Shown in pieces: positions 6,164-55,613 of a stretch of DNA of 64,000 nucleotides. Each line of letters begins with the position of its first letter. Within the stretch, counting starts at the first letter, position 1. The translations under genes and the position numbers were made by a program. The notes beneath the pieces are model-generated. The model ran no database searches, had not been told where the DNA came from, and was given only the letters and a program-made list of their open reading frames with translations. This DNA is from Somniosus microcephalus (lineage: Eukaryota): contig CM126207.1 in the NCBI GenBank assembly GCA_052327205.1, positions 209,436,001-209,500,000 of the forward strand, written 5' to 3'.

Positions 6164-7327
6164 GCAACCCTGGGTGGGACTGTACTCGCCTGGTTCCATT
6201 CTTATCTATCTACTCGTAACCAGAGAATCACCTGCAGTGGCTTCTCTTCCTGCTCCCGCATCACTACCCCTGGGGTCCTCCAAGGATCTATCCTTGGCCC
6301 CCTCCTATTTCTCATCTACATGTTGCCCCTTGGTGACATCATCCGAAAGCACAGCGTCAGTTTCTACATACGCTGACGACACCCAGCTCTACCTCACTAC
6401 CTCTTCTCTTGACCCTGTCCCATGGTCTCTAAATTGTCCGACATCCAGTTCTGGATGAGCAGAAATTTTCTCCAATTAAATATTGGGAAGACCAAAGCCA
6501 TTGTTTTCGGTCCCCGCCACAAACTCCATTCCCTAGCTACCAACTCCATCCCTCTCCCTAACATCTGTCTGAGGCTGAACCACACTATTCGCAATCTTGG
6601 TGTCATATCTGACCCTGAAATGAGCTTCCGACCACACATCCATGGCATAACTAAGACTGCCTATTTCCACCTCCATAACATCGCCCGTCTCCACCCTTGC
6701 CTCAACTCATCCGCTGCAGATACCCTCATCCATGCCTTTGTTACCTCTGGACTTGACAATTCCAATGCACTCCTGGTTGGCCTCCCACATTCCACCCTAC
6801 GTAAACTTGAGGTCATCCAAAACTCGGCTGCCCGTGTCCTAACTCGCACCAAGTCCCATTCATCCATCACTCCTGTGCTCGCTGACCTACATTGTCTCCC
6901 GGTTAAGCAACGGCTCAATTTCAAAATTATCATCCTTGTTTTCAAATCCCTCCATGGCCTCGCCCCTCCCTATCTCTGTAATCTCCTCCAGCACCCCACC
7001 CCCACCCCGAGATATCTGCGCTCCTCAAATTCTGCCCTCTTGAGCATCCCTGAATATAATAACTCAACCATCGGTGGCCGTGCCTTCAGCTGCCTAGGCC
7101 CTAGGCTCTGGAATTCCCTCCCTAAACCTCTCCGCCTCTCTACCTCCCTTTCCTCCTTTAAGATGCTCCTTAAAACCTACCTCTTTGACCAAGTTTTTGG
7201 TCACCTCCCCTAATTTCTCCTTATGTGGCTCGGTGTCAAATTTTTTTTTGTCTTAATACTCCTGTGAAGCATCTTGGGACGTCTTACTACGTTAAAGGCG
7301 CTAGATAAATACAAGTTGTGGTTGTTG
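6164..7327 (+). mobile_element. L2 LINE 3' fragment, relatively young
   Basis: ORF 6422..7213 (263 aa) is an intact ORF2 C-terminus; QGSILGP and YADD motifs frameshifted upstream; (GTT)n tail. Confidence 0.93.
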
Positions 7328-46945: not shown

Positions 46946-48864
46946 GAAACTTTAAATAAAAATCTTATTATAAAAAGGTCTTTGCCTTGGTGCACTTACA
47001 AACATACAAAAATGACGGGCAGGAAAAGGCCAGCTGGTCTAACAAGCCTGCCTCACACTCATGATGCTTGGAGCATCACGACTAGACACTTCACAGCAGC
47101 CATGTAATCTTCTGGGAGAGGCAAAACAAACTCAGGGTCAAAAAGGGAGAAAAAAATCTGGAAAAGACCTCTCCGACCTCCTCAGGCGATCGGAACCAGT
47201 CCAGGAGACCACATTGTGTGCTAAAGTTAACTTCCTGACCTACACTTCACCATGGAAGGGTCTTTTTGTTGGACTGACCAAACATGAAGGTACCAACAGT
47301 TGTATTAATGATGGGCTTTTTTTCCTGACATTGCTTTCGTAACTGCTCACCAGTTAGTGGCAGTCAAAGATACAACACAGGCATCCTCAGCAATTTGACG
47401 AGCTTGAAAGTTAGCCAATATTCAAAGCAAATTATTCTTCTATAATTTGCATTTAGTTATGAGCCCTAAACTAAATGCTTACACTCAGTTTTCCATCGTG
47501 ATCTCATTAGCTGCCAGCTCTCTGCAGACAGATTCTGAAAGGATATCTGGTTGCCAGCAGTTATATATTCACAGTTGCTGATGAGGCATGCAAACATATT
47601 CCTCAGTTCAATTCTTTGTGCTAACACCCACAATGGATCGTTTCAAGTACGCAGCCCTTTTCAAGACTATTCCAGCTCAAAATAAGCCAATTGTAAACAG
47701 AATTCCACAGCAGCTTTAAGACTCTCTTTTCTTGGATAATTTTACTCAGTAAATACACATTCACAAAAGTAGTGAAAAACCAACAAGCAGCTATCTACAG
47801 TTCACACAGGGTTTGCTGAAGGACACCAAAACATGAACAGGAGAGAACACGGCTCTTTGAGCCACGGTTAGCTGAAGAGTTGAATGCAGCATAAATAAGC
47901 GGTGGCATGAGCTATGTGATTAATCAGGAACTGATTACTTAAAACTGTAATCAATATTACTTAAATACTCCATTAATGGAGCGGTCACTAAACTATCTCT
48001 TTAGAAATGATTGAGCGCTCCCTGCATATTTAATCAGGCTGCTCAAAGCCGGCATCATTGTTTGGCATTACCCTATTGTGGGCTCCGCGACATCGTGGCT
48101 TTCTTTATTGTCTGACAATGCTTGAAAGAACTCTGTTCAACGCAAGTTATCGAAAAGTGTCCATTCCATGTGTTTTACATTTGGAGAATACCACAAAGCT
48201 GGGAGGTTTTGTTGAAAGCACAGAAGGTAAAATGCAGTCGTGTCAGAAGACAGCTTATTAAAATCATAGCAAGAGCTAGAAATTCTCATTCTCTCCAGCT
48301 TTCCCTTCTCGCTCACCCAAATACAACATGTACCATCTGCGATCCCCCACCCCAATACAACATACTGCAGTCCTGATCCTCTCCCCCAACAAGAACAATT
48401 GTTGATGTCACTCTCCCTCCCCTACTGCCCCCATCATATCAACACACACACACATTGACCATAAGGGCTGCCAGGGCTCTTGTATTGGAGGAGTAGGTGG
48501 ATAAAGGGAACCTGGGTTGACGCTCCTTTAGATTGCTCCGCCTTGTAGGAAAGCACCTGTATTACTCAAGAGTCTCTTTACTCCATACCAGCCAAGCAGC
48601 CTAACAAGTGATCATCTAGGGCAATGGATGGCAACCTATGCATCATTAGCTCTAAAGTGCAGCACACTGCGGCATCGGCGTGCTTCCAAACGAGCTGTCG
48701 TGGTTACTAACACAAAATTTTTATTTATTTATTTTTTTATTAAAAAAGATCAATAAATCACTACAGAAGCTCTTCATTACATTCGCTATCCGTCCTCCAT
48801 TTGTGCAGCACTGTAGATGTGCTTTATAGTGAACCAGTGGGTTACATTTTTAAATCAACTTAAT

Positions 48865-49541
48865 GGCCTGGATTTTATGGGGTCTATGACAGCGTACGCA
48901 CAACATACGCGGTCGTAAGTGCCCCGCAAGTTCTGGGTTTCCGCATGCTCGAAAACCCGGAACTGGCGATCTGTTAAGATTCAGCTTGACAGATCATCCG
49001 CATGCGCAGGAAATAGCCCAACTCTGCACCAGGGAATGCCCATGAAACTCTTGTATCTGGTAAAAGCAGGCGTAGGGCCTTCTTTTACCAGCTTAAGGGT
49101 TTAAATAAATTTATAACATTTATTTAGATCATTTAAACATTCAAAAATCTTTTAAATTATTTTAGGTTATTTTTGGCCCCTTTAAAAATGTTTAAATTTA
49201 TTTTTCAAAAAATTAAATGTGTCTTAAATGTTTAATTAAATTGTATTTTTATTTAGCTTGTGTGAAAGTGTGTTTTTTAATGTCATTCCTTATGGGGATT
49301 CCGTACGTAAATGAAATGCCCATAAGCATAATGGGGATCCCCCTTTGTGATTGGTTGGGCTGATCCACATGATCCCAGGGACGCTTGCAAACCACATGCG
49401 CCCCGGGATACGTGGGCCTTTACGCCTGCAGACCCAGGAGCGCAAGAGTCCGAAGATACGGAGGCACTGGGTAGTTGCGTACTTTTCTTGCGGATCGGAG
49501 GCATTCACCCTCGGGAAGCCTCCGACCGCAATTTCAGGTCC
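48865..49541. mobile_element. Probable Harbinger-like MITE, CpG-rich ends with an AT-rich centre
   Basis: Imperfect TIR GGCCTGGATTTT / GGACCTGAAATT; architecture like the element at 11639; TSD not clean. Confidence 0.5.
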
Positions 49542-51806: not shown

Positions 51807-52934
51807 TAAGCGCAAAAGGATCACCCAGTTAATTAAATCAGTGAATTGTTATCATTTCTAAACAAGTATTTCACATTCAGTTAGTTTATGAAATCAATCT
51901 CAAATGGATACAATTGCAAAAGCGAGTGCAGCTTTACTGAAATGTTCCCCTTTCCCTGTAGCTTTCTTTACTTATTCACAAACGCTTGATAATTGTATAT
52001 GAAGATTTACAGTGAAAGGCTGCACACTGCTTCTCCCTCTGATGCAAGCTTCTCTAATTTTACTTCAAATCCTCTGTTTTCTTCAGTTACACAGCAATAA
52101 AAGGAAGTGATTGTCAGTGTTATTCATCCTCATATGGTAATCTTTAGCCACTGACATGTTTTCCTCCCACAGCTCCAAATGATAATGCAGTTATCTCTGT
52201 TGCCTAGTAACCCACATTTCAGCTGCCCTAGCCAGTCTAGTAATACTGATTCTACTTACACATTTTACAAGATGTCTAGGTGATGTAATCTATCTGCTCC
52301 ACATTGCTCATCAGCAAGTGTTACAGCAGGCAATCGCCACCTGGGATAAAACCACTTTATAAAGTGAACTTACTGGCTTGAATACAAATGCTGTATTTCA
52401 AAGAGCAAAACCATTCCTATGGGGCCATATAAAACAAAATCTTCATGAAAAGGTACTCAGCAAACCGTAATCGTTTGAAGAGAGAGCGAGCAGAGCCATG
52501 AGCCATTTATCATCACTTCATGAGCAAAGGATACAATGAGTTCCTGCCATAATTGACATGTTTTGTCAACAAAAAGGAAATGCTAGGCATTTTAAATGAA
52601 GACAATACCTCTAAGGCCTAGTGTGGCTCTCCAAGGCCTTTAAGGCAACAACGATTTCACAGAAAATCTTGTGCTCTTTCAAAAAATACTTTTGTAAAGT
52701 GATGATTCATTTGGAGAGCACTGTGAAGACAATCATCCAGGTATCGAAGATCTTGGGCTCATTTAGTTTCTTATCTCCAAGTCGTGCACAAGTCAATGTG
52801 GCCAGCTTCTCTAGTCTCTCCACATAAATACTGGGGATAAATTAAAAGGAGACTGAATCTCGGTTCATTCAAACCCCCAGTACCAACATCTCATAACACC
52901 AAGGTCCAGGAAGTTGTAGCAAACACAGCAATTT

Positions 52935-53372
52935 GACCGAGGCTGAACCAGACTGTTTGCAACCTTGGTGTCATATTTGATCCTGAAATGAGCTTCCGAC
53001 CACACATCGACACCATCACTAAGACCGCCTATTTCCACCTCCGGAACATCGCCTGACTCCGGCCCTGCCTCAGCTCATCTGCTGCTGAAACCCTCATCCA
53101 TGCCTTTGTTACCTCTAGACTTGATTATTCCAACGCACTCCTGTCCGGCCTCCCACATTCCACCCTATGTAAACTTGAGGGCGTACAAAACTCGGCTGCC
53201 CACGGCCTAACTCGCACCAAGTCCCGTTCACCCATCTCCCCTGTGCTCGCTGACCTACATTGGCTCCCGGTTAAGCAACGCCTTGATTTTAAAATTCTCA
53301 TCCTTGTTTTCAAATCCCTCCATGGCCTCGCCCCTCCCCATCTCTGTAATCTTCCCCAGCTCCACAATCTCA
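52935..53372 (+). mobile_element. L2 fragment
   Basis: Matches about 6570-6995. Confidence 0.9.
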
Positions 53373-53417
53373 GGTTATTAAAAAAAAATCAACGTTTCTG
53401 TAAGGAGTGTTACTCAC

Positions 53418-53481
53418 CTTTCATTCTCACGTGGAATTCTCCTAACTGGTTCTCTAGCTCACTCTCCATTGTGCACATACT
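53418..53481 (-). CDS. RIPOR1: RIPOR1 exon, 64 bp (SMCTMESELENQLGEFHVRMK-G)
   Basis: ctccag|AGT, AAG|gtgagt; phase 0/1. Confidence 0.95.
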
Positions 53482-53679
53482 CTGGAGTAAAAGAAAAGGG
53501 CTTTTTCACTTTGGTACATTGGTGTTTCTCAATTAAAAACAAAGTCAATAGTTAGGACATCACATGCTCCTGATCTACAATTGTTATAGAAATCAGACCA
53601 TTTCCCTTCTAGCTGCTTTGATGCCCGCTTGGGATCTGATCTGGTCAGTCTCAGTTCAATGCCTAATGGACATAAATCA

Positions 53680-53914
53680 TGATGTGCCTCAATGAATCCG
53701 AGACTCAACGTTAACAGAGCAAAGCAAGGCTTTTATTAACTCAAAGTAATACAAGCAGGAGAAGTGTCTCTCATCCAGAGATCTGCTGTACTGCCTGTGA
53801 GACATGCTGGGGCCTGCTTAAGTAGGGGCCAGGTATGGGCGGAGCCCTACACACAATACAATACAGGTAAGGAAATGAAACTGAAACTAAACTCCCCTGC
53901 TTGTCACAGTCACA
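53680..53914 (-). mobile_element. Solo LTR, 235 bp (Gypsy-like by TSD length)
   Basis: TG...CA termini; 4-bp TSD ATCA (53676-53679, 53915-53918); minus-strand order is ISRE-like, GC box, TATA-like TACTTAAG, AATAAA (53737-53732). Confidence 0.7.
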
Positions 53915-54336
53915 ATCAAACACAGAGAATACAGAGTACCTGATGAATGGCATATTTCATCACAAATCACACAGTAGAAAACTGACCAACTGCCACCATT
54001 TTGCTCTTGCACATCAGATAAGTGCAACACAGACAACACTGTGGAGTGGTAGAATGTGGCTGCATGCTCAAGATTCCCTATGTGGGGAGGTCTAGTGTTG
54101 GCCATGCTGTTAAAAGCCGAGCAGAAGCTAGGCATTCTGACTTCTCCACTCCTCCCCAGAGGGCAAGGCAAAAATTGGTGGGCAATTGACCATGGACACT
54201 GCTGTGCTCACCTAGTTGCTGATTACAGAATGGGAGAGGCATGGGAGAAGGTTCTTGCCTGCCCTCACAATCAGGGAACATTGTATCGTGCTTTGGGGTG
54301 GAGGCAGGGCCAGAATATAGAATAAAATGGTATCAC

Positions 54337-54803
54337 AGCCTTGGCTCAGTTGGTAGCACTCTCACCTCTGAGTCAGAAGGTTGTGGGTTAAAGTCCCACT
54401 CCAGGGAATTGAGCACATAAAGCTAGGCTGACACTCCAGTGCAGTACTGAGGGAGTGCTGCAGTGTTGGAGGTGCCGTCTTTTGGATGAGACGTTAAACC
54501 GAAACCCCGTCTGCCCTCTCGGGAGGACGTAAAAGATCCCATAGCACTATTTCAAAGAAGAGCAGGGGAGTTATCCCCGGTGTCCTGCCCAATATTTATC
54601 CCTCAACTAACATAACAAAAACAGATTATCTGGTCATTATCACATTGCTGTTTGTGGGAGCTTGCTGTGTGCAAATTGGCTACCGCGTTTCCCACATTAC
54701 AACAGCGACTCCATTTCAAAAAAGTACTTCATTCATTGACTTTAAAGTGCTTTGAGACGTCCGGTGGTTATGAAAGATGCTATGTAAATGCAAGTCTTTC
54801 TTT
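54337..54803 (+). mobile_element. Full-length Deu-domain SINE (SacSINE1-like)
   Basis: A box TGGCTCAGTTGG, B-box-like motif, conserved core, L2-like tail ending gcaagtctttcttt. Confidence 0.88.
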
Positions 54804-55463
54804 ATTTTACAAATTTACAGAAGCTATACTAACAATTTACAATGTACCAGTCAATGTGTCCAGTTTAGATTGTCAATGGTGCATAATAAAATACACAAGC
54901 ACTGGAAAAGACAGAAGGGAAACAGCACTGACCCGGAGTGTAAAGGAGATGAACAATGAGGAATGGTTAGAGGAACTTCAGCTTCTCAGTCTGGAATAAT
55001 AGGTATGTGGAGAAAATCTCAGAAATAAATAAAATACTGAATGGTATAGATAAGGGAAACTCAGATTATTTCAAGAAAGTAGGCCAGAGGACATAAATTT
55101 AAATTAGGGAACAGCAAATTTAGAATAGATAGAAAAAGAATTTGCATTTTTATAGCGCATGATCTCAGGACGTCCCAAAGCACTTCTCAGCCAATAAAGT
55201 AGTTTTGAAGTGTAGTCACCGTTACCAGCAAACACAGAAGCAGGGAATGAAGCTGGGACCTTCCTGATCCGTATGGCTCAGTAACACAACATGGACTATA
55301 CTTAGACATCACAATGCTGTATTAAGGAAACTGTGTGTTACTTTGACAAATGACCTTTGCATTTATGCTTCAAAGATCCAGTCCAGGCTCTGGACAGCAA
55401 GTGCACCAAGCACAGCGCCATTTCCTAACTTCCTAGGTACAATCTTTCAGTTCCTGGCTTTAC

Positions 55464-55613
55464 CTCCGTGTATTCTTTGTAGCCCTTGTTAGCTTCAGCC
55501 AAGCTCTCTCTTGCTTCTTTGCTGGTTTGAGACACAGAATAAGCACGCACCATGTTGTTTGCACCATCCCGTAATCTTCGTTGGATGCAGTAAGATTCAT
55601 ACAGCTCATCAAT
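55464..55613 (-). CDS. RIPOR1: RIPOR1 exon, 150 bp (IDELYESYCIQRRLRDGANNMVRAY...KEYTE)
   Basis: ttgcag|ATT acceptor, GAG|gtaaag donor; phase 0/0. Confidence 0.96.

Follow-up and report, generated by a model that had tools for sequence, protein, structure and literature searches.

A solo LTR in a RIPOR1 intron belongs to a Mag-like Gypsy family that likely primes reverse transcription with its own RNA

The repeat element in a RIPOR1 intron of the 64-kb stretch of shark DNA analyzed here (the window) is a solo long terminal repeat (LTR) of a multi-copy Ty3/Gypsy family, and this family likely primes reverse transcription with its own RNA instead of a tRNA, as suggested by a pairing between the bases after the 5' LTR and the poly(A)-signal segment of the LTR that recurs across many related families. 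At RIPOR1 the LTR is probably a passenger, and any effect on the RIPOR1 protein is most likely small.

Results

A solo LTR in the RIPOR1 intron

Homology between the intronic element and 18 of 19 other copies spans 53680 to 53964, and the nineteenth copy carries an internal duplication close to the 53964 end. All 19 copies are delimited at both ends, TG...CA termini are common to many of them, and exact 5-bp target site duplications (TSDs) were also found at four of five other solo copies (Table 1). The initial annotation had described a 235-bp TG...CA element flanked by a 4-bp TSD, ATCA. The TG...CA ends were retained; the length and the TSD had to be replaced, because homology to the other copies reaches 53964 and the right-hand ATCA (53915-53918) therefore lies in the LTR interior, the real TSD being the 5-bp AATCA. 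The LTR at 53680-53964 has neither a primer-site nor a polypurine-tract flank and is without internal sequence on either side, and we infer that a full element integrated into the intron and that its two LTRs then recombined to leave the solo LTR.

Table 1 Features of the RIPOR1 intron and its LTR (positions in the window).
Feature	Positions	Strand	Remarks
Solo LTR, Ty3/Gypsy multi-copy family	53680..53964	-	285 bp; 96-97.5% identity to 19 other copies
TSD AATCA, left copy	53675..53679		
TSD AATCA, right copy	53965..53969		
ISRE-like motif in U3	53871..53888	+	fits, in two overlapping places, the fish consensus (G/A/T)GAAAN(1-2)GAAA(G/C)(A/T/C)
GC box	53837..53844	+	present in 29/30 5' LTRs
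TATA-like TACTTAAG	53817..53824	-	in copy L047, 83 nt ahead of the pairing segment
Predicted LTR RNA start (~53792), initiator-like GGCAGT	53790..53795	-	32 nt below the TATA-like T; inferred
13-nt segment with AATAAA (53732-53737)	53731..53743	-	pairs with bases after the 5' LTR in full-length copies; likely end of the self-primer
Leader of hypothetical read-through RNA	53482..53792	-	7 upstream ATGs; best donor 5/9 consensus letters
RIPOR1 internal coding exon, 64 nt	53418..53481	-	in-frame ATGs at 53478, 53469
Preceding RIPOR1 coding exon	55464..55613	-	LTR in the 1,982-nt intron below

That the LTR is multi-copy, as had been proposed, was borne out by an own-genome search that returned 1,390 candidates (the 40 scored were 95-98% identical) and by exact-pattern counts of 3,246 LTR 5' ends and 1,214 junctions between 5' LTR and internal region, with reversed controls giving 0. 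The same LTR flanks gag-pol in a full-length copy (L021, 3915-8295; LTR, gag-pol, LTR). The solo LTR has the U3-R-U5 order and lies in sense to RIPOR1, sense being the minus strand of the window, in agreement with the initial annotation.

Contigs touching the LTR ends (53957-54224 and 53370-53706) had a depth of 8.3 compared to ~20 for nearby unique contigs in run X1, and of 4.8 compared to 6.7-6.8 in run X2. This depth of about half to two thirds could mean that the insertion is heterozygous, depth being no measure of copy number.

Coding content and relatives of the family

In L021, Pfam domains for protease, RT, RNase H and integrase are arranged in Ty3/Gypsy order, and the LTR-to-LTR spacing of ~4.1 kb leaves no room for env. 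An in-frame stop at 6850-6852 separates RNase H from integrase in this copy, the one scanned for a chromodomain, where Pfam detected only rve and no chromodomain in L021:6853-7989. The RT active-site motif encoded in L021:4183-6852 is YLDN, not YxDD; YxDN was present in 24 of the 38 scorable homologues, and the term YLDN did not occur among the papers listed in a literature search on this motif. Homologues of gag numbered 47, including those of stingray, mantis shrimp and Trichinella, and the two CCHC arrays seen in L021 Gag occurred likewise in 35 of them.

Two CCHC arrays are described as usual for Mag and Micropia/Mdg3 elements (PMC2577118). With the Mag clades the family shares these arrays, the TG...CA ends, a TSD, AATAAA and the PR-RT-RH-IN order, and its short LTR has ends resembling the TGTNATRT / AYANAACA motifs given for Mag C (PMC3601003). 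In contrast to Mag and other Metaviridae solo LTRs, the family is without a tRNA-type primer site and carries the YLDN motif. We therefore call it Mag-like Ty3/Gypsy, without a chromodomain; the homologues available for comparison included neither a named Mag nor a named SURL element. The family is young. A first look for related gag genes in the own genome gave ~48,000-49,000 candidates, many in open frames of ~1,315-1,330 residues, an abundance by which the lineage is both very large and young in the shark genome.

Two other arrangements were considered and discarded. An LTR pair 6.9 kb apart on C5 is not one element; it is a tandem duplication containing a 4.4-kb element. Split repeats of the DIRS type, prompted by L013, were rejected because a DDE integrase core is encoded between the LTRs. 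A minisatellite (L021:1409-3914) surrounds the full-length copy, which is part of the 6.9-kb tandem duplication. No tRNA genes were found in the 64-kb window.

Pairing between the primer site and the poly(A)-signal segment

From the second base onward, the sequence following the 5' LTR is the reverse complement of the 13-nt AATAAA segment in 29 of 30 junction-selected copies. Priming by tRNA was rejected: none of the 30 junction copies, which were chosen by that junction, has TGG after the LTR, and the primer-site sequence tracks the family's own LTR in each family. When the 5' region of one copy was folded the helix formed with z = -1.65, 12 of 200 shuffles being as good, which is modest when taken alone. 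Other families of the same genome had an 11-15-nt stem at the same position in 29 of 40 loci (four mis-oriented loci of this set were left unassessed), with different sequences in at least four families. Among metagenome loci, a stem of 11 nt or more was found in 46 of 65, in 45 of them at the primer position, compared to 4 of 195 shuffles; these 65 are the loci out of 80 with enough upstream DNA and an N-terminal match, the remaining 15 having been dropped, with about a dozen families recurring in many of them. Where both LTRs were present, the LTR ended one base before the stem in 11 metagenome loci. The pairing thus appears to be kept by compensatory changes across many families.

Self-priming is known for the Tf1/sushi chromoviruses and the plant Tcn1 and TAR elements (PMC6317226, PMC10085805); complementarity of the primer site to the element's own LTR is the criterion given for it (PMC6317226), and the self-primer of Tf1 is described at the 5' end of the RNA (PMC10085805). 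The shark family has in common with Tf1, Tf2, Tj1, sushi-ichi and Tcn1 a primer site after the 5' LTR that is complementary to the own LTR. It differs from the Tf1/sushi chromoviruses, which carry a chromodomain, in the lack of one in the single copy scanned, and, whereas the Tf1 self-primer is 5'-terminal, the pairing segment here has the poly(A) signal at its end and in shark families is predicted to lie ~40-60 nt downstream of the RNA start. Our literature search, with Repbase, GyDB, most subscription journals and supplements outside it, returned no report of self-priming in a Mag-like lineage or of pairing with a poly(A) signal, and the accessible text of PMC12471100 and PMC6934838 does not describe pairing with the poly(A) segment.

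In the mechanism that we propose, the helix after the 5' LTR would both hide the 5' poly(A) signal and supply the primer for reverse transcription, and the primer would begin at the RNA 5' end and run through the AATAAA segment, a length of ~55-62 nt. At four metagenome loci (L115, L116, L122 and L123) the pairing is 5 nt longer than in sister copies and reaches the start of gag. Occasional over-copying of a primer that continues 5' beyond the 13-nt core would produce such a lengthening.

The predicted RNA start and over-copied insertions

Four other shark families carry a TATAAA 71-89 nt ahead of the pairing segment, and the RIPOR1-LTR family has a TACTTAA within this range (83 nt in copy L047), which makes the TATA call reasonable and suggests that the pairing segment is not at the RNA 5' end. 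Conservation of the TATA box was not found in the closest sister subfamily, unlike in the four other shark families. Most relatives from other organisms (L104-L183) have no TATA box at a fixed distance, which weighs against the long primer. The 13-nt segment of these relatives often opens with an initiator-like word (TCAGT, TTAGT), and they may start their RNA at the segment itself, like Tf1.

At 12 loci of the RIPOR1-LTR family (L052-L063), the primer site continues as an antisense copy of the LTR, an arrangement that we refer to as an over-copied insertion. The copy stops after 32, 40, ~64 and 65 nt at four of them and reaches the LTR end at the other eight. The stops at ~64 and 65 nt correspond to LTR positions 173 and 172, located 31-32 nt below the TATA-like T, and one of these two informative loci had prompted the start-site prediction. 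In a second family (L187-L216; 30 of 210 matches fetched and 26 measured, one value being set from the family offset), 20 of the 26 copies stop at +60 to +26 from the TATA T, none at +25 to -5, and six beyond. Under a constant stopping rate such a gap has P = 0.002, or 0.005 with equal positions merged, values to be read with the provisos that copies may share ancestry and that indels can end an extension early. A third family provided three loci only, two of which were unmeasurable. Over-copied insertions that reach the far end of the LTR make inverted repeats, and the insertion at L013/L055 is flanked by a 5-bp TSD.

These stops would be explained most simply if plus-strand synthesis sometimes copied into an RNA primer reaching back to the capped 5' end. 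Since 8 of the 12 loci in the own family and 6 of the 26 in the second pass the TATA box, which needs DNA fold-back, DNA-level template switching also happens, and the long over-copied cases would be such fold-backs. We place the predicted start of the LTR RNA near 53792, at about TATA+30, where the sequence GGCAGT resembles an initiator. A long primer that begins at the RNA 5' end and reaches the poly(A) signal is moderately probable.

An ISRE-like motif inherited with the family

The fish ISRE consensus has been given as (G/A/T)GAAAN(1-2)GAAA(G/C)(A/T/C), and fish interferon-stimulated promoters are described with the ISRE within 70 nt of the TATA box (PMC3688568). The intronic LTR resembles these promoters in spacing, its ISRE-like motif lying <70 nt from the TATA-like box, so that an ISRE consensus is found near the core promoter. 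The promoter motifs are all intact in this copy, and their places on the minus strand agree with the initial annotation (ISRE-like 53871-53893, GC box 53837-53844, TACTTAAG 53817-53824, AATAAA 53732-53737). The string GAAANNGAAACT occurs once in the 64-kb window compared to 0.28 expected (25 of 100 shuffles have at least one), and in 20 of 20,000 dinucleotide shuffles of the 285-bp LTR; it is thus unremarkable in 64 kb and unusual within a single LTR of this length.

The 19-mer at 53870-53888 has 1,872 exact copies genome-wide. The ISRE-like motif was present in all 23 LTR copies of the first 21 loci, which were chosen by likeness to the RIPOR1-intron copy, and in 18 of the 30 junction-selected 5' LTRs, and it was absent from all eight sister-subfamily copies among those 30 and from the loci of four of the five other shark families or subfamilies checked. 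The motif claimed earlier is therefore real in its U3 location and in its double fit to the fish consensus, and it is a trait inherited with the family, not one special to the RIPOR1 locus.

We asked what such a motif could do near RIPOR1. MER41 and other ERV-derived elements are interferon enhancers, and the MER41-type enhancers of mammals are a precedent for the LTR being an interferon-responsive enhancer of full-length RIPOR1 or a neighbour, as one of ~1,900 family-spread motifs. What is shared is a repeat family with an interferon-type motif in many copies; the shark family differs in being non-retroviral Gypsy. The double consensus match, the 1,872 exact copies and the presence of IRF9 in sharks (PMC10107944) favor an enhancer. 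The absence of the motif from the sister subfamily and from most of the other families checked, together with its resemblance to a slippage repeat, argues against one, as do the two CpG transitions among the seven sites at which the intronic LTR differs from most copies, which, small as these numbers are, fit methylation. We regard an enhancer as very unlikely.

RIPOR1 exons and RNA at the locus

Exon-by-exon matching to PL48 (PF15903) succeeded at three loci, the RIPOR1 locus among them, with exon 53418-53481 covering PL48 positions 170-193. In three sharks, proteins under the name RIPOR1 match exon 55464-55613 with 100% identity, which settles the gene assignment made in the initial annotation. 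The downstream exon does begin AGT ATG TGC ACA ATG, as read before, at 198 nt below the LTR. The residue of its first ATG is Met in 111 of 111 matched homologues (111 of 120 listed fit the pattern), and that of the second is Met in 16 of the 111, including all shark and ray proteins printed. Both exon ATGs are thus old internal methionines that predate the insertion, with no sign of a new start. A LINE fragment lies below the exon (52880-53365 of the window). Above the LTR (~54320-54800), a short interspersed repeat of very high abundance carries or abuts a sense AATAAA at 54806.

RNA was examined in two raw, shallow runs, chosen by species label, of a near-identical organism (organism B, under another species label); 24% and 31% of their reads were taken. 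A search for sequencing runs listed 24, among which no treated samples were identified and none was given as RNA containing the large exon. Over 340-510 nt, contigs of organism B show 0-2 letter differences from the window; they enter both LTR ends by 26-27 letters, the rule for bridging being 31 letters. The RIPOR1 exons had a depth of ~1-3 on the expected strand, and the lower exon was not deeper than the upper one. The unique-intron bins 53526-53603, 53994-54305, 54852-55085 and 55242-55397 had depth 0 in both runs, and 15 of 130 RNA joints were inspected. At this low power, the missing intron reads argue only that no LTR-driven or LTR-terminated form was dominant in those two samples. Five molecules 'beginning' at 53743 in run X21 were set aside, as they lie antisense, next to a 2-bp indel by which copies differ.

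Polyadenylation and promoter activity of the LTR at RIPOR1

The initial annotation had raised intronic polyadenylation of the RIPOR1 pre-mRNA at the LTR AATAAA. Read-through of the 55464 donor would add 12 residues before a stop at 55427, so that an N-terminal product would end 12 residues into the intron, and the sense AATAAA has U/GU-rich sequence below it and, in a solo LTR, no pairing partner. Another sense AATAAA occurs earlier in the same intron, at 54806, among 37 on that strand of the window, and the three unique-intron bins between 53994 and 55397 were empty of reads in both shallow runs. We found no positive support for this form, and consider it even more doubtful than an enhancer.

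The other proposal was promoter activity: induced by interferon, the LTR would start transcription inside the gene, and translation from the exon ATGs would yield an N-truncated RIPOR1. Such a product would lack the Rho-binding region and keep the C-terminal region that binds CCM3/MST. The intact ISRE-like motif, GC box, TATA-like box and initiator, all in sense orientation, would suit such a promoter, as would the in-frame exon ATGs, which have A at -3, the second in a strong Kozak context. Approximately the first 204 residues (P0001 numbering) would be lost. In human FAM65A the HR1 Rho-binding domain is reported at residues 138-205, and its deletion is described as abolishing RHOA binding and sparing CCM3/MST binding (PMC5201024), from which a product of exon 53418-53481 would plausibly be Rho-blind.

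Set against this, an RNA from the predicted start at 53792 would meet the LTR AATAAA at about +56. Without a pairing partner in a solo LTR, RNA started there would likely be cut at this signal ~60 nt on, or else contain seven ATGs ahead of the exon; the frame opened by one of these overlaps the exon out of frame, across both exon ATGs. The leader offers no good donor, as scored by a simple count of consensus letters and no trained model, and no reads fell in 53526-53603 in either run. The exon methionines are conserved internal residues, and the placement of the LTR is expected by chance, ~3-8 sense family LTRs being expected within 200 nt above an acceptor if 150,000-250,000 internal exons are assumed. 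With old methionines, a leader hostile to translation of the exon and a chance placement, the truncated RIPOR1 was left without positive support.

The closest precedent is LTR16A1-ACE2, also an intronic retroelement above an internal exon with a product truncated at the N-terminus, whose isoform is described as seen as a transcript and shown to be inducible; for the RIPOR1 LTR, by comparison, no such transcript was seen in the two shallow runs, and it is without a splice donor. The start in the published version of that case was reportedly reassigned to a MIRb element. We judge an LTR-driven, N-truncated RIPOR1 to be the least probable of the three functions considered for this LTR. Equally remote is the combined scenario in which a self-priming non-retroviral Gypsy spread ~1,900 working ISREs and the RIPOR1 copy drives a Rho-blind, CCM3/MST-binding isoform, or serves as an enhancer, in antiviral responses, and in which short RNAs of the solo LTR, terminated at its AATAAA, might themselves act as primers for the family; here it is the interferon-RIPOR1 part, as opposed to the priming part, that is unlikely.

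Discussion

The reading of the intronic LTR as a passenger leaves its promoter layout (ISRE-like motif, GC box, TATA-like box and a start near 53792) as one that would serve the retrotransposon. For RIPOR1 itself the locus matters little, intronic solo LTRs being common.

The interest of the element lies in its family. New in the proposed scheme are the implied primer of ~55-62 nt, in place of the short 5'-terminal primer of Tf1, and the implied start site near 53792. With 1,872 copies bearing the ISRE-like motif, the response of a whole family to interferon could easily be tested in sharks, and over-copied insertions give access to RNA start sites with nothing but the genome sequence. If the scheme is true, the design of this family is a different one, a single helix serving both to hide the 5' poly(A) signal and to define the primer, and tRNA-free self-priming would no longer be confined to the Tf1/sushi chromoviruses but would include an animal lineage that is widespread and not chromoviral.
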